A DNA stretch of 64,000 nt from a virus. Taxonomy: Duplodnaviria > Heunggongvirae > Uroviricota > Caudoviricetes. Below are positions 561 through 51,083 of the stretch, in pieces. The notes below the pieces were generated by a model, which made no database searches, was not told the DNA's origin, and saw nothing but the letters and a program-made list of their open reading frames with translations. Position 1 is the first letter of the stretch. Each line of letters opens with the position of its first letter. Location: IMG/VR virus record IMGVR_UViG_2541047959_000009; one strand, given 5' to 3'. A program made the translations under genes and the position numbers.

Positions 561-2261
561 ATGGAACACTTAAGACAACTGCAAAATAAAACTTCCCTGT
601 TAGAAAAGTACGGGACTAGTAACGCACATCTTTTATGGTCATTAGGTCTTTACTTAGATGAATCCGATTTTGATAAGCTAGCATCTGATGGACTTACTGA
701 TGGTGGAAACGATAAGAAAATAGACTTCATTACCGTAATTAATTCAACGTTATTTATTGCTCAGGGTTACTACTGCAATCAGCAAGCACTTAAAATAGTT
801 GCGCCTGCAAATAAAGCTTCTGACTTAAACACTGCTTTAGCGTGGATTATGGCAGGCTCAGGAGAGTCTCCAAATGCAAAATTAAGAGCAAAAATTTCTG
901 AGGTTAGAAAATTAATTGATGATAACGAAATTGAAGCTGTTGAATTATTATATATCCATAATTGTGCCGAATCTGAGCAGGTTAAAACTGAGCTTGAAAC
1001 TTGTCGTGACTATCTAGCAGGTAGATTTGCAGACAAAGAAATTGAGGTAACTTACAGAGAACTTGGTGTTAATAGTCTTGAAAAATTGTATATTGCGCTA
1101 TCACAACAAATTGTTGTGACTGACAATATAAAGTTCAATGGCGAACTTATAAATTCTGTACAAGGTGATGGCTGGACTTCACATGTTGGCTTTGCAAACG
1201 GCACTTGGCTAAATTATTTATACAAAAATTATGGAGCAGAATTATTTTCTGCTAATTATAGGGGGTTCATGGGATTAAATAAGAGAAGAAAAATAAACTC
1301 ATCAATTAAGAATACCGCAGAAACATCCCCAAAAGACTTCTTTGTCTTTAACAATGGTGTATCAATCCTAACAACAAAATTCAACAAAGAAAAAGGGTTG
1401 TTGGAAGGAGTTTCAATCATAAATGGAGCTCAAACCACTGGTTCTATTGGTTCAGTTCAAGATATACAAAAATTAGATGGCCTAAAAGTCCTTTGTAAGG
1501 TTATTGAATGTAATGATGCGGACAAAGTAAAAAAAATAGTCCAGTATAATAATACTCAGAATCATATTACAACCTGGGATCACTACTCTAACAGCACAGA
1601 ACAAAAACAGGTGGCAGAAGAATTTTCCACTCTTGGTTATACATATTCACTGAAACGCGGCTTCGAAAATACTGGTTCTTTATTTGGCATTGAGTCTGTT
1701 GCTCAACCGCTGATAGCGTTACATGGGGATTATGTTAGCGCCAATAGAGGTAAAAACTACGTTTTCGATACAAAATCAGCCTATGACAATGCCTTTCATG
1801 ATTCGAAAGCCCAGCATATTTTATGTGCTTACACTATTTCAAAAGCTATAGAAAAAGTAAAATCTCAAATCCGTGCAAAAGAGAATAAAATTAAAGTAGA
1901 TGAGGATAACTTATTATTCCTCCAAAATTTAAAGTCTCGATTCTTTTTAATATCCGTCATCGGAGAAATACTTGAAGAATTAACAGATAAACCTTTGAAC
2001 AAGAAGAAAATAAAATATAAATATGATACAGCATTATCTAAAAATAACTCTCTGGATGATTTAATCGACCTTTGGACACCAGTTATAACTGCGATATTAC
2101 CACATGTTATCCGTGTTTCAGGTCAAGATTTAACCACCTACTTATCTGTAACAGACAACCCGTTATCTATCGTATCAAAGGAAGTTAAAAACATATTAAC
2201 ATCCTTAAAAGCGTTCCAACCGATTGAGCCATTAATTACTCTTTCAAATCACCTTGAATAA
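561..2261 (+). CDS. AIPR-family abortive infection protein (putative), AT-rich cargo in S-V gap
   Basis: 566-aa ORF opposite to flanking late genes; motif FNNGVSIL...NGAQTT typical of AIPR (PF10592) as I recall; AT-rich versus GC-rich phage flanks. Confidence 0.55.
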   Translation: MEHLRQLQNKTSLLEKYGTSNAHLLWSLGLYLDESDFDKLASDGLTDGGNDKKIDFITVINSTLFIAQGYYCNQQALKIVAPANKASDLNTALAWIMAGSGESPNAKLRAKISEVRKLIDDNEIEAVELLYIHNCAESEQVKTELETCRDYLAGRFADKEIEVTYRELGVNSLEKLYIALSQQIVVTDNIKFNGELINSVQGDGWTSHVGFANGTWLNYLYKNYGAELFSANYRGFMGLNKRRKINSSIKNTAETSPKDFFVFNNGVSILTTKFNKEKGLLEGVSIINGAQTTGSIGSVQDIQKLDGLKVLCKVIECNDADKVKKIVQYNNTQNHITTWDHYSNSTEQKQVAEEFSTLGYTYSLKRGFENTGSLFGIESVAQPLIALHGDYVSANRGKNYVFDTKSAYDNAFHDSKAQHILCAYTISKAIEKVKSQIRAKENKIKVDEDNLLFLQNLKSRFFLISVIGEILEELTDKPLNKKKIKYKYDTALSKNNSLDDLIDLWTPVITAILPHVIRVSGQDLTTYLSVTDNPLSIVSKEVKNILTSLKAFQPIEPLITLSNHLE

Positions 2262-2264
2262 ATA

Positions 2265-2293
2265 ACGGGTGGCCTCCTAGGCCACCCGTTCAT
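2265..2293. terminator. Hairpin between convergent AIPR-like gene and gene S
   Basis: Inverted repeat acgggtggcc/ggccacccgt with 5-nt loop directly after the stop codon. Confidence 0.45.
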
Positions 2294-2316
2294 AACTTAT
2301 TTTTAATCTAAAATTT

Positions 2317-2775
2317 TTACGGCTTATTGTTATTAATTAACCATTGATAAAAAACATTCTTAACGTTGTTCTCAATATCATTGTTAATACCCAACAAACG
2401 CCGCTCTGCATACCGTACGTCCGGTCCTTTGCGACTGACGCGATCACGCAGACCGTAATGGTGAACACGGGCAATGCGCTGTACCTTACCTTCAAACTGC
2501 ACGCTGGCAGAGTCGGCGCTGGCGGCAGTTTTCAGGTATTTTGTGGTGCGCAGCTTTGCAAACATCTGACGTTTGATACGGCCTTTTTTACTGCGTGCTG
2601 TTACCCGTCGCGGTTCATAGCTGCTGCCGTCAGGGTTGCGCTGCATCCTGATATTCTGCTGCTGTGTCCGGCGAAGTTCCTGCGCCAGCTGGCGCATCAT
2701 GCGGCTTCTCGAGGCTGGTTCCAGATTCGCCAGCAAGGCACTCAGCCAGTCGTCCACCTTCTGCAGTTCAGCCAC
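2317..2775 (-). CDS. S: P2-like tail completion / virion morphogenesis protein S
   Basis: 152-aa ORF, MAELQKVDDWLSALL..., position between R and V as in P2. Confidence 0.8.
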   Translation of the reverse strand: MAELQKVDDWLSALLANLEPASRSRMMRQLAQELRRTQQQNIRMQRNPDGSSYEPRRVTARSKKGRIKRQMFAKLRTTKYLKTAASADSASVQFEGKVQRIARVHHYGLRDRVSRKGPDVRYAERRLLGINNDIENNVKNVFYQWLINNNKP

Positions 2776-3220
2776 ATTTCACCGTCCACATTTCTTCAGG
2801 TGCATCAGGTTCCGCTATAGCTTCAACGCTCGACACACTGCCGTCAGTGCTGACCAGCACACGTTCCGTCAGTTGCAGGTTCAGGCTGATATCACAGACA
2901 TCGTTGCGCAGAATATCCACCTCAAAGGTGAATAGCTTTTCCCGTAACGCCGGGTTATTGATGGCATCGGGCTGGTTATCCCTCAGCCACAGCAAAACCG
3001 GGGCCATCAGCAGATTCTGGTCGCCGCTGAAATCCTCAATCACCGCGTTCAGTGTGTAACGGTACTCCCACGACATGGAGCTGGCCCCCGTGGCAACCAG
3101 CGAACCGTTATCCACAAACAGATGCAGTTTGTCCGGGTTATTGCGGACATAAGGCACCGCTTTATTGAGGGCGTGGCGCAGGGATTGTGGTTTGTTCACT
3201 GTTTCGCTCCTGACACGCAA
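2768..3220 (-). CDS. R: P2-like tail completion protein R
   Basis: 150-aa ORF overlapping S start; P2 late-operon synteny. Confidence 0.8.
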   Translation of the reverse strand: MRVRSETVNKPQSLRHALNKAVPYVRNNPDKLHLFVDNGSLVATGASSMSWEYRYTLNAVIEDFSGDQNLLMAPVLLWLRDNQPDAINNPALREKLFTFEVDILRNDVCDISLNLQLTERVLVSTDGSVSSVEAIAEPDAPEEMWTVKCG

Positions 3221-3452
3221 TAATCATGTCCACTTTGTCTGCACAGACCGCCCAGGCGGCCTCCGTTTCATCCAGCAACGCGTTCAGATCACCGTTAGTG
3301 CGCGGCGTTGCCTGATCCAGCCGACACGGCGTCACTCGCGGACAACCACTGACGGTAAGCCATACCTCCGGTGAGTGCCGGACGTTTCCGCAGCCGGATA
3401 ATGTCAGCAGGCAAAGGAGTATCAGCCCAGCGGCGTAAATCCTCGTTCTCAC
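3162..3452 (-). CDS. lysC: LysC-like o-spanin (Rz1 analogue), overlapping lysB in another frame
   Basis: ORF embedded in and extending past lysB; lipobox-like LTLSGC; proline-rich. Confidence 0.5.
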   Translation of the reverse strand: MRTRIYAAGLILLCLLTLSGCGNVRHSPEVWLTVSGCPRVTPCRLDQATPRTNGDLNALLDETEAAWAVCADKVDMIIACQERNSEQTTIPAPRPQ

Positions 3453-20590: not shown

Positions 20591-21814
20591 ATGCGCAACA
20601 TTATCGAATTAGAACAGATATCGGAAGAACTAAAAAAACATGAACTATTGCAACCCCCATTCATTGCCGAGGGAAAACTAATTTCTGACTTTTCTAAGAG
20701 AGTCGAGTGCTATTTAGAATTAATTGACTCCATTAGAAATAAATATCCTGACAACGAGATAATTAAACAAGTAAAGATTCGCACAAAATCAATAATATAT
20801 TTATCTGATAAAATAATAGAAACTCTTAAGCTATTTTTAATAGGAAATGTTAAAGAAGCTTATAAAAAATTCGATTTGGCAATTACCAAGTCATCAATGC
20901 ATACTCATCTTTATAAGATGACTGTTCCTCTAACTAAATTATGCAACCCACACACCCCTTTATTTCGCGTAAGGAAAAGTGAGTGCATCCTAAAACAAAG
21001 AGAAGAATTATTTCATATACCATTTAAAAATAGACATTTAGTTAGCGCACAAAGATTTTCTGTATCCGGTCTTCCATGTTTATATCTTGGAACATCAATA
21101 TTTGTATGTTGGCAAGAAATGGGAAAACCTGACTTTGATAAACTTTACATATCTTCCTTCATATCCGATAAAGAAAATTCAAATATAAGAATTTTAGATC
21201 TTGGGTACAATTTAACATCTGCACTTCGTACAAAACCGGGAGATCTTTGGTATTCATTCGAACAAGGTTCAGATGATGATTACGATCTAAATAATGATAA
21301 TTTCATGGATCAAATTAATGATAAAATTTCAAAGTTGATTGCATGGCCTTTAGTCCTTGCATGTAACTATACAAAAGATAATGAAAACGCAAGTTTTAAT
21401 AAAGAATACATAATACCAAACCTATTAATGCAATGGATTAGTAGTGACAGAAACAAAAATATATCAGGGATATCGTATCGATCAACAAAGATATTAAACC
21501 AAAAAGATAGCGATATTGGGATTAATGTAATTATCCCCCCAAAAATAGAAAACATAGTTGAAACCAATGATACCCACTGTCCTGTTTTAAAAAAAATATT
21601 TAGAGTTACAAACCCTGTTTCCTGGACTGTGTTTAGTACACTAGAAGCCACCCCCTATCTATACAAAAATAATTTTAATTTTTCGACCTATAATCCCGCA
21701 AAAGGATGGATTGAAGACTTTGATGAATCCCTTGTTGAACATTATGAAAATACCACTTTTAGAAAAGTTGAACTCCTTATTCATCAAATGATGAAGTATG
21801 AATATTTAAAATAA
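20591..21814 (+). CDS. RES-domain-like protein (putative NAD-targeting toxin fold), AT-rich cargo after int
   Basis: 407-aa ORF 4 bp after int stop; segment SAQRFSVSGLPCLYLGTSIFVCWQEMG matches the RES Arg/Ser/Glu signature as I recall. Confidence 0.5.
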   Translation: MRNIIELEQISEELKKHELLQPPFIAEGKLISDFSKRVECYLELIDSIRNKYPDNEIIKQVKIRTKSIIYLSDKIIETLKLFLIGNVKEAYKKFDLAITKSSMHTHLYKMTVPLTKLCNPHTPLFRVRKSECILKQREELFHIPFKNRHLVSAQRFSVSGLPCLYLGTSIFVCWQEMGKPDFDKLYISSFISDKENSNIRILDLGYNLTSALRTKPGDLWYSFEQGSDDDYDLNNDNFMDQINDKISKLIAWPLVLACNYTKDNENASFNKEYIIPNLLMQWISSDRNKNISGISYRSTKILNQKDSDIGINVIIPPKIENIVETNDTHCPVLKKIFRVTNPVSWTVFSTLEATPYLYKNNFNFSTYNPAKGWIEDFDESLVEHYENTTFRKVELLIHQMMKYEYLK

Positions 21815-21930
21815 GAGTGGCGGCATAATGGCGGCAAAGAGTTAAAAACACATAAAACAAGGTAATACATCGTAAACTTAAGTGATTGAAAATTAACATA
21901 AATAGTTGTTTTGCAACATGTTATAATGGT

Positions 21931-21975
21931 ATGTAGGAATTTCGGACGCGGGTTCAACTCCCGCCAGCTCCACCA
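21931..21975 (+). other. 45-nt copy of the ssrA (tmRNA) 3-prime end: prophage attachment core
   Basis: atgtaggaatttcggacgcgggttcaactcccgccagctccacca matches the remembered E. coli ssrA 3-prime end; upstream is unrelated AT-rich DNA. Confidence 0.7.
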
Positions 21976-22104
21976 ATCATGATTGGACGGTGTAAGGACA
22001 ACACCAACAAAAACAGGAAGTTAGAAGTCTCAGCAGGACACCGACCAGACGGTGAGGAGACATAAAAGGATACGCAAAGGAGCCGCGGCTCCGAAGTGAA
22101 ATGA

Positions 22105-22360: not shown

Positions 22361-22558
22361 ATGGCACTGGACAGTTATGCATCTCCGAATATTATTCCGG
22401 AGCTAAGACAACCGAATGCCGCAGCAGGTAAGATCACGCTAGGGGGGCTGGACAGAATGGCTGTTACGCCCAGTGTGAAGAAAAGAAGGCTAAGTATGGT
22501 AGAATTTCCATACGCACAGACCTTGTTATCCGACTATACAGCCTGGAAGGCACTATGA
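22361..22558 (+). CDS. Small ORF upstream of and overlapping the nuclease-like gene (uncertain)
   Basis: 65-aa ORF with ATGA stop-start overlap with the next gene. Confidence 0.3.
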   Translation: MALDSYASPNIIPELRQPNAAAGKITLGGLDRMAVTPSVKKRRLSMVEFPYAQTLLSDYTAWKAL

Positions 22559-23343
22559 CAAATCTACAACTGGAAGAAAGATTTAGGGCGCTTGAGAAAG
22601 ATTACGATGCGCTCATTTCCACAAAATATACTGCGCAGAACGTTCTCACTCACACTATGGAAACCTATGTTGATTCTGGTAAATATAAAAACTGGATCGC
22701 CAGAGTGAAAAAGTTAATAGAGGACAGCTACGGAAAAGAGTCTGATTATTACAATGACTTCAATACTGTAAACAGCAGGTGGTCTTCTAATTACAATACA
22801 CTGATCAAAAGTTATAAACCGTTGTTTGATGCGGCGAGAGATGATCTTGCGCACTCTGCTGTCAGTACTAATACTCCTCAAGAAGGTTCGCCGCTGAGCC
22901 TCGTACTTAATATTCTTAACAGGTTTCCGACCTTTGTTCGCCAGTTAAAGAGGCGGTACAACGGCCGTGCGCCGCTTGAAGTTAATGATGAGTATGACGT
23001 ACAGGATTTGATTTATGCACTGCTGACGCTTCATTTTAATGATATTAGGGCGGAAGAGTATACCCCCAGCTTTGCGGGCGCGGCCTCAAGACAGGACTTT
23101 CTTTTGAAAAAAGAGAAAATTGTGATAGAGGTGAAGAAAACCCGTGAATCTCTGGGAGCGGGTAAAGTTGGTGGAGAGTTGCTTATTGATATGGCGCGCT
23201 ACCGCGCTCACCAAGACTGCGATACGTTGATCTTGTTTGTATATGACCCGGATTGCTACATAAATAATCCTTTGGGCGTGAAAACCGATCTGGAATCTAA
23301 AGACGCGGAAGGAAAAGTGAAGGTTGTTATTGCGCAGTTCTGA
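22555..23343 (+). CDS. PD-(D/E)xK nuclease-like protein (putative restriction-endonuclease fold)
   Basis: 262-aa ORF; C-terminal EYDVQD...RQDFLLKKEKIVIEVKK fits D...D/E-x-K; helical N-terminal domain. Confidence 0.55.
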   Translation: MTNLQLEERFRALEKDYDALISTKYTAQNVLTHTMETYVDSGKYKNWIARVKKLIEDSYGKESDYYNDFNTVNSRWSSNYNTLIKSYKPLFDAARDDLAHSAVSTNTPQEGSPLSLVLNILNRFPTFVRQLKRRYNGRAPLEVNDEYDVQDLIYALLTLHFNDIRAEEYTPSFAGAASRQDFLLKKEKIVIEVKKTRESLGAGKVGGELLIDMARYRAHQDCDTLILFVYDPDCYINNPLGVKTDLESKDAEGKVKVVIAQF

Positions 23344-23378
23344 CACGCTTAAGTGTCACCTTACAGGATTAGGTTTGC

Positions 23379-23423
23379 GGCCGTGCCAGCAGGACGAGCA
23401 TGAAAAAGGCCGCTGGCACGGCC
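23379..23423. terminator. Hairpin between convergent genes
   Basis: ggccgtgccagc ... gctggcacggcc 12-bp stem. Confidence 0.4.
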
Positions 23424-23430
23424 GGATTTG

Positions 23431-23724
23431 TCATCTTTGCCAGGTCAAATCAAAATCTACGTGAAAATCCGCAGGCTTAAGCTCGCAACTGCCACCACGC
23501 CCAATTAACGACGTTATGTTTACAACGTTTGAACCTGTTGAGATGGCAAGTTGAGTGTCATCTGTAAACGTGATGATTAGCATTTCAGTCTGATGAACCT
23601 GTACTCCAGTTTTCTGAAAACCAATCTGGACAGATTTCACCGTTTTCCCAACCATTTCACGGGCTTGATTGATAGAGTAATTAGCTTCAACTTGTAGGTC
23701 ATTCCTGAACTTGGGTAGTGTCAT
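23431..23724 (-). CDS. Hypothetical 97-aa protein
   Basis: ORF with AAGAGGATG RBS. Confidence 0.45.
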   Translation of the reverse strand: MTLPKFRNDLQVEANYSINQAREMVGKTVKSVQIGFQKTGVQVHQTEMLIITFTDDTQLAISTGSNVVNITSLIGRGGSCELKPADFHVDFDLTWQR

Positions 23725-23934
23725 TTTACATCCTCTTTAGTGAAGTTTTCGCTATTTAAATCAGCAGCATTCCTTTTAAATCACTGGCATGTCAGCAGTG
23801 GATAGTCTGAGTGTAACGTCCAGTGAGGGGAATAAATATTGGTCAGACTTTGCACAAAAGAGCCAACTATCGCGGGCTCTCTCTCATCATGTGCGAAAAT
23901 TGACCACAATATGAAATCCAGTTCCATTCCGAAA

Positions 23935-24759
<825 letters not shown>

Positions 24760-24865
24760 TCAATTGACAACTTATAATCCCTACTAGTTAGCATTATGAT
24801 TTCCAGAGTGAGGAATATAAAAATCTCTGTTTCTGGCACATAACAGCCCTTAAGATCGTAGCTCG

Positions 24866-24915
24866 CCATCATGGGGTGTCGGGGGGCGGAGGTTCAAATC
24901 CTCTCGTGCCGACCA
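24866..24915 (+). other. 3-prime fragment of a tRNA-Pro(UGG)-like gene (att-like remnant), not an intact tRNA
   Basis: catggggtgtcggggggcggaggttcaaatcctctcgtgccgacca matches remembered proM 3-prime half; no complementary 5-prime acceptor strand upstream. Confidence 0.55.
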
Positions 24916-24928
24916 AAAATCCCTTAAG

Positions 24929-24955
24929 AACCAGCCTATTATGGCTGGTTTTTTT
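24929..24955 (+). terminator. Rho-independent terminator after the tRNA-Pro fragment
   Basis: aaccagcc tattat ggctggtt then ttttt. Confidence 0.6.
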
Positions 24956-25156
24956 ATGATTGTTTTTTATGCGGAGAAATACCGGGGAATAATTGGGGTA
25001 AAACACCTTTAGGCTATTCACTTAGCCTACCACCATCAAAATCTTTCCGAATGTATCCATCTCTTTTTTCTTATGCAGCTAAAACGAAGTCTTGATACTG
25101 TTTATTTACACAGATAAGAATAATACTGTCTACAAACGCAGTACAAAAGAAGTGTT

Positions 25157-25335
25157 ATGCGTATTGAGATCTCCATAGCCAAAGACAAAATGACCAAATG
25201 CCAAACGGCGCTGTGGACGCGTTAAAGGAAGAATTAACCCAACACATTGGCAAGCGTTATGACGATGTGGAGATGATCGTAAAAGCCACCAGCAACGATA
25301 GTTTTTCAGTTAGACATACTGCAGATAAAGATTGA
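25157..25335 (+). pseudogene. dinI-like gene disrupted by a frameshift
   Basis: [11 protein letters not shown]... stops after 22 codons; the DinI-like remainder ...[37 protein letters not shown] is in another frame. Confidence 0.45.
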
Positions 25336-25759
25336 GCTAAAACTTTCGTTCAGGAAACTCTGAATGATACCTGAGAGTCTACTGAAGAGTTGTTTGTTCA
25401 CTAGTTAGCACGTAGGAAATCATTCAATACTCGCACTATCGGAAGTTCACCAGCCAGTCGTAGCACGTCCTTGCAAACGACGTGCCTACGGTTTCAATCA
25501 CCTCTCACCATCAATTCTATCAATAATAATTAAACAGCGCCTAGACAAAATAAATAACAACAAGTCAACAACCTCGACAGGATGCCGATGGGATGATGAA
25601 GAGATAAGAAAGAATAACCAGTAAAGCCCTAAAACGTCAGCGTTCAGACGCGTTTTTTACTTAATCGGTAACAAATACGTTGTATCATAGCAAAATAAAA
25701 TGATTGTTCTAAATCAGATTAACTCCTCACTTTTGTACAATGTCGCTTACAGGTATACC

Positions 25760-27649
25760 ATGAAATCCGAGACGCTAACTGTCCAACAACTTTTTCAAGA
25801 CCGCCGACAATACTGTGTTCCATTCTATCAACGTGCCTATGTATGGACTCAGCAAGACCAGTGGTCAGCTCTACTGGAGGATATCCTAGAGAAAGTACAA
25901 TCCCGGCTCTCGGGTACAAAACCAACTCCCCATTTCCTTGGTGCGGTTGTACTGGAACCTCAATCAAAAAAAGGATTATTAGGTGTAGATTCCATACATA
26001 TTATTGATGGTCAGCAACGATTGACCACTCTTCAATATGTTCTGGCATCCATCCGATTAGCATTACGTGCTACGGATCTTTCCAGCTTAGAGGCTCTCAT
26101 TTCGCCTTGCCTGAAAAACTCAAACGAAGACACAATGCGAAATAAAGAAGTAGAACGCTTCAAACTGTGGCCAACTTTTCGGGATCAAACTCATTTTATT
26201 CAAAGTTTTAATGTTGAAAATATTGACGATCTCCGGGACGTATTCTCTGATAGTTTCACGCAGCATGGTACGTTGCGTAAGCATTTTAATCACCCGCCAT
26301 CACTAGAAGCATTATGTTTTTTTACTGAAGCCTTTATAAAATGGATTAAAATAGAAAACCACTCACCACAAGAAAATGCTGTAGCTCTAATTGAGGCTGT
26401 CTTAACAGATCTGAAACTGGTAAGCATATTTCTCGAAGCTGAAGATGATGCCCAAATAATTTTTGAAACATTAAATGGGCGAGGGGCGGAACTTCATGCT
26501 ACGGATCTTATTCGCAACTATATCTTTATGTGCGCTGAGCATGAAAATATTAATGCTATTGAATTATATGAAAATGAGTGGAAGAGCTTTGAAGATAAAT
26601 ACTGGTCGGAAAAACAACGCCGTGGACGTATTAATAAACCACGCATGGAGTGGCTAGTACATGCGACATTGCAATCAGAAAGGCAACGTGAAATTGATCT
26701 GTCTCGCCTTTACAATGAGTATCGTGATTATGTAAGTAAGGACTTGTCTTCACAACGAGCAGATCTGCAAGTAAAGCGCCTCAAACAATATGCATCACAA
26801 TATAAAGAATTGGTTGATGGTTTTGGCACAACCCCCATCTCACACTTTGGATATCGCATCGCAGACTATGATGTGACGACACTTTATCCGCTTGCTTTGT
26901 TCATTTCGATAGCTAACATCGCTGATGATGAGAAAGCAGCCATGTATAATGATCTTGTCTCCTACGTAGTACGAAGAGCCGTATGTGGCCTGACGCCAAA
27001 GAATTACAACAATGTATTTATGAATGTATTGCGGCACTTGGCTAAAACGGAAATTTCCAGTGTTGAGTTACGTAATATCCTCAATAACTTAAATGGCGAA
27101 GCCTCACGTTGGCCTGGTGACTCAGAATTTCTCAACGCTTGCATCAATGCTCCACTTTATCCTGGCAGGCTCGACGCACCGAAAATGCGCTCAATGTTAA
27201 CGGAACTTGAAAGAGAACTTTGTCGCCAAGTAAAGACAGAAAAGCCTGATGTTCCAAATCTTTCTAATCTCGATATCGATCATCTTATGCCTCAAAGTTG
27301 GTATTCCTGTTGGCCTCTCGAAAATGGTCGTATGGTGACAAATTCAGATGCTACGGTATTGAACCAAATTGTTCTGTCTGGAACCGATCTTACCCCTGAA
27401 CAGCTACTGGTAAGGAAACGGCAACAAGCGATATCTACTTTGGGAAATCTAACTTTGCTTAACCTTAGCGTAAACCGTTCTGTTCAGAATGCTGTATTTC
27501 TGAAAAAACGTGATGCTCTCATCGTCCACACCAATCTACGACTGAACATTCCACTTATAGTTAAGGATAAATGGGATGAGGATGAAATCCTGGAGCGGGG
27601 TAAAAAGTTGGGGGAAATTGCATTGAAAGTATGGCCAAAACACGATTAA
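25760..27649 (+). CDS. GmrSD-family type IV restriction endonuclease-like protein (DUF262 + DUF1524)
   Basis: N-terminal QRAYVW and IIDGQQRLTTL; C-terminal DIDHLMPQS...GNLTLLN His-Me finger; ORF opens at 25700 but AGGT RBS favours ATG 25760. Confidence 0.75.
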   Translation: MKSETLTVQQLFQDRRQYCVPFYQRAYVWTQQDQWSALLEDILEKVQSRLSGTKPTPHFLGAVVLEPQSKKGLLGVDSIHIIDGQQRLTTLQYVLASIRLALRATDLSSLEALISPCLKNSNEDTMRNKEVERFKLWPTFRDQTHFIQSFNVENIDDLRDVFSDSFTQHGTLRKHFNHPPSLEALCFFTEAFIKWIKIENHSPQENAVALIEAVLTDLKLVSIFLEAEDDAQIIFETLNGRGAELHATDLIRNYIFMCAEHENINAIELYENEWKSFEDKYWSEKQRRGRINKPRMEWLVHATLQSERQREIDLSRLYNEYRDYVSKDLSSQRADLQVKRLKQYASQYKELVDGFGTTPISHFGYRIADYDVTTLYPLALFISIANIADDEKAAMYNDLVSYVVRRAVCGLTPKNYNNVFMNVLRHLAKTEISSVELRNILNNLNGEASRWPGDSEFLNACINAPLYPGRLDAPKMRSMLTELERELCRQVKTEKPDVPNLSNLDIDHLMPQSWYSCWPLENGRMVTNSDATVLNQIVLSGTDLTPEQLLVRKRQQAISTLGNLTLLNLSVNRSVQNAVFLKKRDALIVHTNLRLNIPLIVKDKWDEDEILERGKKLGEIALKVWPKHD

Positions 27650-27899
27650 TGCAATTAATAAAATGATTATAGTGGCCTTACATTAGTAAGGCCGCTACTC
27701 ACTATTAAATACTTTAATTTGCATCAAGAACAGCAGTGTCAGCCCTAGGTCTCGGACTTTGTACCGCTTATCTTGTCTTCAAAAATCAGCTCGCATCCTG
27801 CACAGTTCAGCGCATTACGTTGTAGATCTGTGTTCTGGTCATTTGTTGACACACGTACATAGCCAATAAGCATGGTAGATCTCCCTGACAAAAGCAGGA

Positions 27900-47484: not shown

Positions 47485-47586
47485 TTAAAGTGGGATCTAA
47501 CTCTAATAATTTAAAAAATTTAATTGGGTCTTGATATTAATCACATAGACTCAATGCTCTTTAGTTCTTACATAGGTGGTTGTATT

Positions 47587-48027
47587 ATGAGTATCCCCAG
47601 TTTAGATGTTCATAAAGTTGTTAAGTGCGCAGAGCATAAAAAGGCTTTAGATGCAATATCTCTCAAACTTAAGAATAACATTATTGACTCAAGCTCTGAA
47701 TACGATTTTCTTGGCGACACAATAATTTTCAATAAAGATAAAAAAAATAGGTTAACCCTCAAACTTTCAACATATGAACTAGAACTTATTTTCAAAGAAA
47801 CACTGCTAGTCATTGATGAAGCTCCTGTATTGAAGTTTGCTGCCATTGACCCAACCGATGAAAATAACAACGAGCTGATTGATTTATTTTTATCCAAAGG
47901 TGGATTTATTTATATTAGAGAATACAAATCCGAGCCACATTATGAGTATGGCGACACTTCTCTATTTTTACATATACTTGACGCTACTCTTAAAGAGCTT
48001 AAATCTGCAAACAAAATATCCTATTAA
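47587..48027 (+). CDS. Hypothetical AT-rich moron protein (146 aa)
   Basis: Plus-strand ORF opposite to the late operon; AGGTGG RBS before ATG 47587. Confidence 0.45.
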   Translation: MSIPSLDVHKVVKCAEHKKALDAISLKLKNNIIDSSSEYDFLGDTIIFNKDKKNRLTLKLSTYELELIFKETLLVIDEAPVLKFAAIDPTDENNNELIDLFLSKGGFIYIREYKSEPHYEYGDTSLFLHILDATLKELKSANKISY

Positions 48028-48133
48028 ATAAATTTTTGCTAACATAGCCCCGCGCCATGACAAGATTTTCTGTTCTAGATGCAAGGGCTATGTGTGAATA
48101 TCTATAAACAAAAACCCCATCCGGTGATTTTTG

Positions 48134-48385
48134 TCATTTTTTAGCCATCTCAATTGCGGCATCAAAAAGTCGTTCAAGAATAAAATCAGGGTACTGTAAT
48201 TTTTCTTGCTCGATATGAAGCTCATAAATTTTCCCTTCCCACTCCCATTTAAAATTAAATCCAGAAGCAGAAGGTGCGAAATGTGTTTTAGCTTTAGGGT
48301 TAGCGTAACCAGCAACAGTCAACACATCAAACTTAAAATCTTGAGGTTTAATACGCATAATCATATCCTTTGCCAAGTTCATCAT
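48134..48385 (-). CDS. Hypothetical AT-rich small protein (83 aa)
   Basis: Convergent with 47587-48027; start uncertain. Confidence 0.4.
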   Translation of the reverse strand: MMNLAKDMIMRIKPQDFKFDVLTVAGYANPKAKTHFAPSASGFNFKWEWEGKIYELHIEQEKLQYPDFILERLFDAAIEMAKK

Positions 48386-48455
48386 TATTCTTCTCGATTA
48401 TAAAACAATGAATAAAATCATTAAAGCATAGACGTTAAATATCCTCAAAATGTGA

Positions 48456-48893
48456 TTAGTTGGGACATTGCGTCCTGATATACTCCTGCAAGTAATTGAC
48501 CTGTGAGGTTATCTTGTCGATTCCACTTCGGAGACGGTAATAATGGAGTTCAGCATCTGCTGTAAGTCTAGGGCTTTCTCCATCGCCCATGCCGCTGGCT
48601 CCGGTCGTTGACTTTGTACAGGTGGCGGCGACTTGCAGGCGCTTATGCCCAGCAGAAACATCAGCACGAAGACTTTCGATAGTCGCATTAGCATCAGCAA
48701 GCTCCTTTGTATATCTGGCATCGAGTTCAGCTACATTACGTTGACGCTTCTGCATATCAGCGATGATGGATGTGGCTTTATCGCGCTGTACTTTGTAGAC
48801 GATGGCGTCATCACGGTAATTATCAACAGCCCATGACAAGCAGACGATGATGCAGATAACCAGAGCGGATATAATCACCGTTACTCTGCTCAT
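48456..48893 (-). CDS. Rz-like i-spanin
   Basis: 145-aa ORF, N-terminal TM, after endolysin. Confidence 0.7.
48509..48721 (-). CDS. Rz1-like o-spanin lipoprotein embedded in Rz
   Basis: Embedded alternate-frame ORF with lipobox LLGISAC and proline-rich region. Confidence 0.5.
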
Positions 48894-49366
48894 ACCTGAA
48901 TCTCTTTGACCGTTCCGCCGGCTTCTTTGAATTTTGCAATCAGGCTGTCAGCCTTATGCTCAAACTGACCATAACCAGCTCCCGGCAGTGAAGCCCAGAT
49001 ATTGCTGCAACGGTCGATAGCCTGACGAATATCACCGCGATCAATCATCGGTAAAGCACCACGCTCTTTAATCTGCTGCAGTGCAACAGCATCCTGGCTT
49101 TTTGGAGAGAAGTCTTTCAGTCCAAGCTGTTTACGGTATGCATCCCACCAGCGGGAAAGAAGCTGGTAGCGCCCGGCAGCCGTTGATTTGAGTTTTGGGT
49201 TTAGCGTGACAAGTCTGCGAGGGTGATCGGAGTAATCAGTGAATATTTCTCCGCCCACAATGACGTCATAACCATGATTACGTGTCGGTTGTAGCCCATT
49301 ATCCGTTCCTTCTGACCAGGCCACCATATCGAGGAAAGCTTTACGCTGAGGATTAAGATTTTGCAT
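48890..49366 (-). CDS. Endolysin (lambda R-like lytic transglycosylase)
   Basis: 158-aa [27 protein letters not shown]... Confidence 0.85.
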
Positions 49367-49757
49367 TTTTCACCCCTGTCAGTCGTTCCCAGAAGTACGT
49401 CAGTGCAACCGAACCCATCGCACCACTAATCCCCGCAGTTGCGAGAATCATGTAAATACTGAATCCACTTTCGATACTGATTAGGCCACCAATAACACCG
49501 GTGAATCCTGATACAACTATCTGAGCGAGGGCATTTATCCAGCTCCACGTTGCTTTACTCTGCTTCACATCAATCAGGTAACGGACAAGCCCCCCCCAAC
49601 CTGCGATGATCAGCAAAACAAGCCAGAACGCTCCGGCAAGATTCTCTTTTTCGTGCATATGAATAGCCGCAGTTTCGCCTCCGACAGAAAATCGGAGCGT
49701 GAAATGATATGTTGATTTATTATTAATTCGAAAATTACATTCTAATTCATCAGGCAT
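49353..49757 (-). CDS. Holin
   Basis: TM-rich ORF overlapping endolysin start; likely start at internal MHEK at 49658. Confidence 0.6.
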   Translation of the reverse strand: MPDELECNFRINNKSTYHFTLRFSVGGETAAIHMHEKENLAGAFWLVLLIIAGWGGLVRYLIDVKQSKATWSWINALAQIVVSGFTGVIGGLISIESGFSIYMILATAGISGAMGSVALTYFWERLTGVKNAKS

Positions 49758-49809
49758 TGATGATTTTATAATAATAAAGGCCGTTCGTTACGGCCTTTAT
49801 TATTGATAT

Positions 49810-50145
49810 TTATTTTACATCCCAAGGTAGTTCCTCAAGAGAGAAGACTAATTCATTATCAATAATTTCGTATTCTGCATAACCTTCAACCTCTCCTGAG
49901 AAGTTATTGTCAACGCATCCTTCATAATAGCTATATGGTGCTATAAAGTGAAACCCATATTCATCTATCTCTGTGATTTCAAAATTGTAGTAATCGTAAG
50001 AATATCGAATATCATCATCAGAAATAGAACTAAGTACATAGTTATTAAATTTATCGGAATGCTTAACGATAAGTTCTGACAACGCGTCAAGATTCTCTGG
50101 AGAGATATTTCCTAACGGTAATCTGTACTCAACGGCATTAATCAT
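49810..50145 (-). CDS. Hypothetical acidic AT-rich moron protein (111 aa) between antiterminator and lysis genes
   Basis: ORF downstream of the tR-prime-like terminator and upstream of holin. Confidence 0.5.
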   Translation of the reverse strand: MINAVEYRLPLGNISPENLDALSELIVKHSDKFNNYVLSSISDDDIRYSYDYYNFEITEIDEYGFHFIAPYSYYEGCVDNNFSGEVEGYAEYEIIDNELVFSLEELPWDVK

Positions 50146-50201
50146 ACAACCTCCTTTTTAACTGATATGAGGTTATATAATGTGTTTCAGTACAAGTAAA
50201 T

Positions 50202-50222
50202 AAAAACCCGCTCAACAGCGGG
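50202..50222 (-). terminator. tR-prime-like intrinsic terminator downstream of the Q-like gene
   Basis: On minus strand CCCGC tgttga GCGGG followed by TTTTT. Confidence 0.55.
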
Positions 50223-50330
50223 TTCGTGAAAATTATCAACGGCAGACATACAAAGCCCATCGTTGAGAAAATCTTATCCATATTTTTTGAAAAATGCAAG
50301 CTTCATGTCACTATCTTCGGCGAAAATCAC

Positions 50331-51083
50331 TTATCTCGTCACCTTTCTCAATTGTGTTTCAGCATATGCTTCTTCCTGCCAGCACTTTGTTACTAGTTTA
50401 TCAATTACGTCTGCATATCCTTTGTACCACTGATAATCAGTCAGGTCTGGAACCAGCTTCTGGACATGACGTCGTGCCAGTGTAGTCGGTAAACGGCTAA
50501 ACCGGTTTCCATTGCAACGCCCACAAGTCTTATAAACAGGCGTGCCATGAAGCCGGGTTCTTTTTTCATCCAGGACAATACCTTTACCCTTACACCCTCT
50601 GCACGCCGTGCTGACTTCTCCCTTGCCATGACAATGCTGACACAGTTCCTTCACCCACTCTTCTTTGATAACGGATTCCCCGCTTCTGGAATGTTTCACC
50701 ACTTCGCGCAATACATTATGAAATCCAGTACCAGTACAATGCTCACAGCGAGCCTTACTTGCCGCAGACCTGGAATAATCAGCAAAGGCAAAATTCACAA
50801 GGTAAGGGATGATCTGTAACCGGGTTTCTTCACTCAATTTGTTCAATGTCGGGTTATCCAGTGCCATCGCGTAATTGAGCAGGCCTTCAATCGCAAACTG
50901 AGGATCCTGAACACCAACTTTTGCCAGGAATAAGGCAAACCCAAGCGGTGCTTTCGACTGCACCATCCCCTGCGCAGCCATTACATCCGTAATTGTTAAA
51001 CCACCCGAGCCTGTCGCCGATGCGTCATCGCTCAATTTTGGAGATTTTGGGGAGTAATATTTCGGTAAGGCTTCAAGGTTCAT
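50331..51083 (-). CDS. Late antiterminator Q-like protein (multi-CxxC zinc finger)
   Basis: Position just upstream of terminator and lysis genes; CEHCTGTG/CQHCHGKG/CRGCKGKG/CGRCNGN motifs; start taken at MNLEAL. Confidence 0.5.
   Translation of the reverse strand: MNLEALPKYYSPKSPKLSDDASATGSGGLTITDVMAAQGMVQSKAPLGFALFLAKVGVQDPQFAIEGLLNYAMALDNPTLNKLSEETRLQIIPYLVNFAFADYSRSAASKARCEHCTGTGFHNVLREVVKHSRSGESVIKEEWVKELCQHCHGKGEVSTACRGCKGKGIVLDEKRTRLHGTPVYKTCGRCNGNRFSRLPTTLARRHVQKLVPDLTDYQWYKGYADVIDKLVTKCWQEEAYAETQLRKVTR

Follow-up and report, generated by a model that had tools for sequence, protein, structure and literature searches.

The Q-to-Holin Slot and the 111-Residue Protein Gene

The window analyzed here is a stretch of 64,000 nucleotides from a virus of the class Caudoviricetes (IMG/VR record IMGVR_UViG_2541047959_000009), which corresponds nearly base for base to positions 2,878,068–2,942,067 of Escherichia coli UTI89 and is matched likewise by other B2/ST95-type genomes (S88, IHE3034, APEC O18, NU14, and ATCC 11775). 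It contains a prophage of ~40 kb, located at about 22–61 kb and adjoining ssrA, that combines a lambdoid regulatory region, an HK97-type head, a P27-family small terminase, and a contractile tail, and whose late genes lie on the minus strand. The gene under study (49810..50145, minus strand) encodes an acidic protein of 111 amino acids, recorded in RefSeq as WP_000606308.1, “hypothetical protein”. It is situated between a late antiterminator module of the Q type and the holin gene. The slot from the Q-dependent terminator to the holin is where Stx phages carry stx, and lambdoid phages are known to carry Shiga toxin, porins, cold-shock proteins, and late methyltransferases between Q and holin. 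The original prediction, made from the nucleotide sequence alone, had described the gene as an acidic, AT-rich moron in this stx-equivalent slot; its coordinates were exact, with the ORF starting at an ATG, and its placement between the tR'-like terminator (hairpin 50225–50204) and the holin was confirmed by a terminator scan and by the family assignments of the flanking genes (PF03589 for Q, PF16083 for the holin).

The start codon is preceded, at a distance of 4 nt, by the Shine–Dalgarno (SD) sequence AGGAGG (50155–50150). The gene has a GC content of 33%, and the 500-bp insert in which it lies one of 32%, against 49% for the window and 45–50% for the flanking Q and holin genes. The protein contains 24 aspartate and glutamate residues versus five lysine and arginine residues, giving an isoelectric point (pI) of 4.05 and a net charge of −19, and 19 of its residues are aromatic; the AT richness and strong acidity described earlier are thus both real. 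The peak hydropathy over 19 residues is 0.59, so that neither a hydrophobic or transmembrane segment nor a signal peptide is present. The downstream hairpin attributed to the gene is a palindromic, bidirectional intrinsic terminator with a 16-bp stem (49769..49805), which the terminator scan placed directly 3' of the stop codon. A chance open reading frame (ORF) was ruled out, as shuffling the 500-bp insert 5000 times produced a frame of at least 111 codons in just 10 cases and the homologues show selection, with nonsynonymous divergence (dN) far below a saturated synonymous divergence (dS).

Boundaries of the Insert

The Q gene upstream (50331..51083, minus strand) is of the QuuQ/ydfT type (PF03589, E 3e-54; PHROG 127, E 1e-108; RefSeq “antitermination protein”). 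Its RefSeq start is at 51083, while the longest ORF reaches 51125, and its stop codon occupies 50333–50331. The DNA of this gene is ~87–92% identical to ydfT of Qin-type prophages, including ~87% identity to ydfT/quuQ of K-12 Qin. Right after the stop codon follow, on the same strand, a putative PR'-like late promoter (TTGCAT-17-TAAGAT, 50271..50299) conserved in K-12 Qin and in strain 4/1-1, the leader motif AACGATGGGCTTTGTATGT (50246..50264) common to the same three loci, and the tR'-like intrinsic terminator (50196..50225), formed by the hairpin and a T-tract. The leader motif recurs in more distant loci with PF03589-type Q genes (L025, L028, and L044), and may be the site at which Q proteins of this family act or at which transcription pauses (candidate Q-utilization or pause region).

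Homology to more than 3000 E. coli genomes with a ydfT/quuQ-type Q spans the Q stop codon, the PR'-like promoter, the leader motif, and the terminator hairpin, and ends at about 50191–50205; the T-tract of the terminator (50191–50205) is thus the exact left recombination joint of the insert. On the other side, homology to insert-free holin loci resumes at about 49695, and the insert ends ~35 nt before the holin start. These limits delineate an AT-rich insert of ~500 bp (about 49691..50190), in which a promoter-like block, a hairpin in the 5'-untranslated region (UTR), the ORF, the terminator, and an AT-rich spacer succeed one another. The LydA-type class III holin gene (49353..49658, minus strand; PF16083, E 1.5e-21, RefSeq start) lies outside the insert as the first gene of the lysis cassette, which continues with a GH24 endolysin and Rz/Rz1. 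The longest holin ORF (134 aa, from 49757 on the minus strand) runs ~100 nt into the AT-rich insert (49659–49757); given the RefSeq start at 49658 and the beginning of insert-free holin homology at about 49695, this N-terminal extension is probably not real.

Different contents occupy the slot in related prophages. In K-12 Qin, the same Q/PR'/tR' module is followed by cspF, cspB, and ynfU and then by the holin, and in strain 4/1-1 by a 67-aa ORF and a DNA methyltransferase in place of the gene. A prophage of the O157:H7 strain 3384 carries an identical holin, endolysin, and Rz cassette with an empty slot; its Q is of the lambda type, and only ~320 bp separate Q from the holin. Reuse of the T-tract joint was also observed in other genera, where the leader and terminator of one DUF1133-type Q precede two members of the protein family, a window-type gene in Salmonella (L004) and a 36%-identical member in Enterobacter (L014). 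A nearly identical terminator stem (AACCCGC...GCGGGTT) also closes unrelated Q modules of the DUF1133 type.

The gene is, very probably, an autonomous accessory cassette of ~500 bp, or moron, that recombined at the T-tract of tR' and is part of neither a toxin system nor the lysis machinery, and its product is with the same high probability a soluble, cytoplasmic, aromatic-rich, and very acidic protein with an α+β fold. The designation as a moron is supported by the presence or absence of the gene between identical flanks, its deviant composition, its own terminator, and the alternative cargo of relatives. Morons lie mostly in late regions, and the linkage of stx to Q is maintained (PMC3430580). 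In accordance with the concept of Hendrix and Juhala for lambdoid morons (e.g., lambda bor and lom, and HK97 gp15), the gene is inserted between genes that are adjacent in relatives, is AT-rich, has a promoter-like block ahead of it and an intrinsic terminator behind it, and is dispensable to the neighboring modules. It differs from them in that the family keeps to a single position right behind tR', in that the product is a soluble acidic protein and not an envelope protein, and in that expression from its own promoter in the prophage state is here putative.

The comparison with stx of Stx phages such as 933W and Sp5 holds for position only. Both occupy the slot between PR'/tR' and the holin (gene S in Stx phages), where Q would be expected to raise transcription upon induction, but the window gene is single, has no relation in sequence or fold to AB5 toxins and no signal peptide, and is preceded by a Q of a different type (QuuQ-like, PF03589). 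A toxin was ruled out by the lack of toxin homology in Pfam, NCBIfam, and PDB and by the lack of a signal peptide. A further comparison is with the cargo of the QuuQ-type loci, cspF/cspB/ynfU of K-12 Qin and the late methyltransferases, which share the same Q, PR' leader, and tR', and the same break of homology at the T-tract; their proteins are, however, unrelated to the 111-residue protein, and cspF and ynfU of Qin lie on the strand opposite to the late operon. The Q-to-holin slot gains a defined, uncharacterized occupant that is conserved across genera. It is ordinary prophage cargo, a hypothetical gene with clear limits at a hot spot already known, helpful for annotation and not surprising; of most use among the by-products of the analysis are the conservation of the SD-occluding hairpin and the finding that recombination reused exactly the T-tract of tR' as its joint.

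Distribution and Conservation of the Protein Family

The protein matches PHROG 13663 (“unknown function”) over its full length (E 9.4e-54, residues 1–111 on positions 1–111 of the 111-position profile). Close relatives, with 69–98% identity, numbered only three in a word-indexed search (E. coli, Salmonella, and Citrobacter), while an exhaustive hidden Markov model search of 1.84 billion cluster representatives gave 26 matches. Named members found by a second profile search belong to Enterobacter hormaechei, Citrobacter, Salmonella, Duffyella, and Erwinia. All members have ~110 residues, all are named “hypothetical”, and their identity to the window protein falls to 25–40%. The family is confined to lambdoid prophages of Enterobacterales and, apart from the PHROG of unknown function, is undescribed; literature text searches returned no paper with the accession WP_000606308.1 and nothing specific to the protein. 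Of the 5426 complete E. coli genomes searched, 132 have the gene, almost always with at least 99% identity, its hosts including strains of the ST95 type associated with extraintestinal and avian pathogenic E. coli (UTI89, S88, IHE3034, and APEC O18). The family is also common in E. hormaechei, Citrobacter, and Salmonella.

Seven residues are invariant among members down to ~30% identity (F33, D45, R47, Y48, G76, C77, and W108), and a further three are nearly so (L38, F55, and E105). Acidity is conserved throughout, with net charges of −9 to −22 and pI values of 4.05–4.74 in all 43 members considered. Against homologues of 69–72% identity, dN was 0.15–0.22 with saturated dS, and the closest pair had a dN/dS of 0.28; the family is under purifying selection. 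The homologous genes have 35–40% GC within loci of 45–51% GC.

Genomic Context across Family Loci

All intact loci examined have the family gene on the late strand between Q and the holin; in most of them it follows the Q module immediately, and in a minority further cargo is present in the slot as well. The sole locus outside the slot is that of Erwinia tracheiphila, where the gene is part of a decayed remnant ridden with insertion sequences and a Q fragment lies 5 kb away. The surrounding modules vary widely. In the E. coli window, a PF03589 Q is combined with a LydA holin and a GH24 endolysin; in Salmonella, one E. coli, and Enterobacter, a DUF1133/PF06530 Q with holin_8 plus holin_3_7 and a GH19 endolysin; in Citrobacter, a DUF1133 Q with a P21-type holin and a lysozyme; and in Duffyella, a PHROG 753 Q with a P21-type holin. 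Another Salmonella lineage has a short PF06530 Q with three extra ORFs and, in one variant, a methyltransferase before holin_8.

Among 26 viral contigs of IMG/VR, the first downstream ORFs were tested at 20 loci and gave 18 matches to holins of four Pfam families (holin_8, nine; P21-type, seven; lambda-S-type, one; LydA-type, one). Eleven of the 21 upstream ORFs tested matched Pfam Q families (DUF1133/PF06530, six; PF03589, five), and others, four plus one re-tested, matched the PHROG Q families 753 (four tested) and 127. Overall, the gene is associated with four Q families, five holin families (PF16083, PF16931 plus PF05449, PF04971/PF16080, and PF05106), and three endolysin types. It is an independent module, whose sole constant is the Q-to-holin slot 3' of tR'. 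A lysis accessory tied to one cassette is excluded by the five holin and four Q families, by the occurrence of the same holin without the gene, and by the absence of a transmembrane segment; the alternative that the original prediction named as its refutation, a lysis accessory conserved in this group of phages, is thus not what the loci present. The strict conservation of the position after tR' suggests that Q-dependent read-through matters to the family.

DNA methyltransferases adjoin the family gene or lie near it in L021, L022, L038, and L042. Divergent ORFs of ~290 aa beside the Erwinia and Salmonella copies are unrelated and have no Pfam match. The Citrobacter prophage of loci L009–L013, whose copy of the gene is 69% identical, also encodes a pore-forming colicin domain (PF01024) within a 364-aa protein, the gene of which lies at ~2181–3275 of the locus, on the opposite strand in a nin-like region.

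Regulatory Signals of the Cassette

Between tR' and the ATG, the window contains a non-canonical promoter-like block, TTTACT-17-TATAAC (50172..50200, minus strand), whose hexamers and spacing are conserved in L002, L004, and L009. In this subgroup, TTTAC(T/A) and TATAAC are kept 17 nt apart, while the spacer and the synonymous sites of the gene have diverged. A larger subgroup, aligned from 11 loci, shows an invariant TTG(A/G)CA followed, after 15–16 nt, by an invariant TAnnnT amid variable surroundings; this block is also non-canonical on account of its short spacer. A third subgroup (L044–L047) has only ~40–50 nt from terminator to ATG and no promoter-like block. A consensus promoter scan of the tR'-to-ATG stretch called none, the window block being missed because the last base of its −10 hexamer is C. 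An own promoter, one of the hallmarks of a moron, is hence no more than plausible: the block is conserved, but the consensus scan does not call it. A strict scan found a terminator within 130 nt downstream of the gene in 19 of the 26 family loci, with stems that vary between loci.

The 5' UTR is predicted to form a hairpin (UAUAUAACCUC / 15-nt loop / GAGGUUGUAUG; 50143..50179, minus strand), in which 50179–50169 pairs with 50153–50143 and covers both the SD sequence and the AUG. RNAfold gave a minimum free energy of −10.9 kcal/mol (z −2.15), and the initiation region was equally inaccessible in four of 80 annotated control genes of the region. For the family, the unpaired probability averaged 0.46 over 24 distinct 5' UTRs, compared with 0.62 in the controls (Mann–Whitney p 2e-5, a value that overstates independence because the members are related). 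Equivalent hairpins were found in L002, L004, L009, L014, L020, L023, L028, L042, L045, and L047. Their arms, tabulated by script since MAFFT sets the arms of different subgroups in different registers, include AACCUC/GAGGUU, AUCCAC/GUGGAU, UUCACC/GGUGAA, GCUCC/GGAGU, UCACUUU/AGAGUGA, and CAUGCG/CGCAUG. The arms vary by subgroup while the hairpin persists, a compensatory variation. The SD sequence is paired across the family, and in the window the AUG is paired as well. An Rfam scan of 49300–50700 gave only sub-threshold chance matches.

In both subgroups with a promoter-like block, the −10-like hexamer abuts, overlaps, or sits a few nucleotides from the 5' arm of the hairpin. A transcript from an own promoter would accordingly start inside or after the anti-SD arm, while read-through RNA from PR' would contain the full hairpin. 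Because block and hairpin overlap, TATATAACC may owe its conservation to pairing with GGTTATATG and not to promoter function. An SD-occluding hairpin abutting a promoter-like block would make this cassette a compact case of cargo expression that can be coupled to, or uncoupled from, the late transcript.

Predicted Structure and Possible Role

The AlphaFold2 model, built from an alignment of 25 sequences, reached a predicted local distance difference test score (pLDDT) of 86 and a predicted template modeling score (pTM) of 0.78. Its topology comprises β1, α1, α2, and five β-strands, followed by a low-confidence C-terminal tail bearing the conserved motif LDE(T/L)xW. The original prediction had proposed homology and structure searches as a check; apart from the hypothetical family members, these yielded the PHROG of unknown function and weak fold resemblances only, the top matches being NTF2-like/SnoaL-like pocket proteins, along with a likewise weak cystatin-like resemblance. 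As in NTF2-like, VirB8-like, and cystatin-like folds, the model places helices on a curved antiparallel β-sheet; many members of these groups are protein-binding or inhibitor modules, and the predicted fold class frequently serves protein binding or inhibition, although the searches identified no homologue of known function. Foldseek against BFVD gave no match at E ≤0.001, a PDB sequence-profile search gave none, and the Pfam, NCBIfam, and PADLOC scans gave one sub-threshold chance match at most. The protein is outside every toxin, lysis, DNA-mimic, and defense family tested.

As a tentative proposal of low confidence, with a less than even chance, the protein could be an acidic binder or decoy of a basic protein, made from late Q read-through and serving to protect progeny or to counter host defense. 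The placement of the members in the Q-to-holin slot, together with the existence of one subgroup without a promoter-like block, argues for Q-dependent late mRNA as the main source: the protein would be produced chiefly through Q antitermination when late transcription sets in, and the SD hairpin would limit or gate its translation. The conserved charge of about −16 on a soluble protein of ~110 residues without a catalytic signature suggests a stoichiometric binder or decoy, which would neutralize a basic, probably nucleic-acid-binding, partner. This partner could be a nuclease, a nucleoid protein, or a sensor of host defense or abortive infection, and its neutralization would safeguard late replication, packaging, or progeny. 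The progeny-protecting or anti-defense role conjectured here would fit with the late-acting DNA methyltransferases that share the slot.

Acidic DNA mimics (T7 Ocr, ArdA, T4 Arn, HI1450/YciU, Ugi, and several anti-CRISPRs) offer a parallel to the protein, which is cytoplasmic and phage-borne and has ~110 aa, a pI of ~4, more than 20% aspartate plus glutamate, and a charge conserved over a divergent family. In contrast to this general likeness, there is no match to them in sequence or structure, and the predicted fold differs from those of Ocr and ArdA.

Several observations weigh against the proposal of a late acidic decoy. Known anti-restriction DNA mimics are expressed early, or from early or leading genes, whereas the 111-residue gene has a late position, and the occluded SD sequence speaks contrary to high synthesis in the late phase. 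The promoter-like blocks in most subgroups would permit expression in the lysogen, as in a classical moron that benefits the host. The sequence and structure searches gave no match to a known anti-defense protein, DNA mimic, or immunity protein; no binding partner was identified, and a search of the family loci for an accompanying conserved gene (a toxin or an effector, for instance) found none. There is also no phenotype to lean on, since a tblastn search of three family members against 50,697 GenBank records of isolated phages gave no match. A more ambitious version, in which the family would represent a new class of late-operon-leading acidic decoys (DNA or protein mimics) whose synthesis is gated by the promoter of the mRNA, is considered improbable; in such a class, a host defense or abortive-infection sensor would be disarmed just as late proteins and packaging substrates appear. 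The hairpin would then act as a switch, the own-promoter transcript being translatable and the Q read-through RNA occluded, or with the reverse logic; if true, this would be a promoter-dependent translational switch within a moron. If the product were a true anti-defense or superinfection-immunity factor, it would constitute a new inhibitor family.

The most credible alternative, although rather unlikely, is a classical lysogenic-conversion moron expressed from its own promoter in the uninduced prophage to the benefit of the host, for example through cytoplasmic superinfection immunity to other phages or modulation of a host regulator. The cassette would then be insulated by tR' upstream and by its own terminator downstream, and only the own-promoter transcript would have a free SD sequence, with the Q read-through RNA translationally damped. 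The conservation of TTTAC(A/T)-17-TATAAC in the window subgroup despite saturated synonymous sites is consistent with this explanation, as are the invariant TTG(A/G)CA and TAnnnT of the larger subgroup, the position of the −10-like hexamer at the 5' arm of the SD hairpin in both, the terminators on either side of the gene, and its AT richness, a trait of many horizontally acquired conversion genes. On the other hand, neither block passes a standard consensus scan (C at the end of the −10 hexamer; spacer of 15–16 nt), TATATAACC is perhaps conserved simply to pair with GGTTATATG, subgroup L044–L047 lacks any such block, and a self-sufficient unit would have no reason to keep the slot after tR' across four Q families.

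A factor in lysis timing, for instance a cytoplasmic antiholin-like protein that is co-transcribed with the holin and binds basic holin C-terminal tails, is very unlikely. The family gene is always upstream of a same-strand holin, immediately so in most loci, and an acidic protein could in principle bind basic holin tails. This association nevertheless extends over five unrelated holin families and three endolysin types, other genes sometimes intervene before the holin, and a terminator stands between the two genes; moreover, the identical lysis cassette of O157 strain 3384 lacks the gene, and the protein has no membrane segment. Least probable of all, a small-molecule-binding or enzymatic protein, such as a sponge for a defense signaling nucleotide held in the pocket of an NTF2-like cone that the residues F33, D45, R47, Y48, G76, C77, and W108 would line, draws on the weak NTF2-like/SnoaL-like fold matches and on the invariance of these residues among ~30%-identical members.

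Other Features of the Prophage

Within the lysis cassette, an ORF in the +1 frame (48509–48721, minus strand) is embedded in Rz (48456–48893) and contains a lipobox-like LGISAC motif; it is expected to be the Rz1 o-spanin nested in Rz. RefSeq annotates Rz alone in UTI89 (“lysis protein”).

A second AT-rich island (47490–48450, 30–36% GC) lies between Rz/Rz1 and the HNH/terminase genes and was found in 105 E. coli genomes. It carries an ORF of 167 aa on the plus strand (47524–48027) and one of 74–83 aa on the minus strand (48134–48385). Scans of Pfam, PHROG, NCBIfam, and PADLOC gave no significant match to either, nor did the phage records contain one to the 167-aa ORF. The latter ORF is present as an unannotated copy, shorter by 1 nt, in UTI89 and IHE3034.

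The ssrA-proximal end of the prophage (about 22500–27700; ssrA, 21614–21976) encodes a DUF262 protein of 630 aa and a LEM-3-like GIY-YIG protein, in addition to a DinI-like pseudogene and a recombinase fragment. These cargo genes could be of the defense type.

A related phage genome with the same 111-residue gene is present in E. coli CX04 as a circular “plasmid” of 37.7 kb (NZ_CP081716.1; L053) containing head, tail, lysis, and Q-region genes. This content suggests that the assembly captured a phage that had excised or was replicating, and phages of this type probably still excise.

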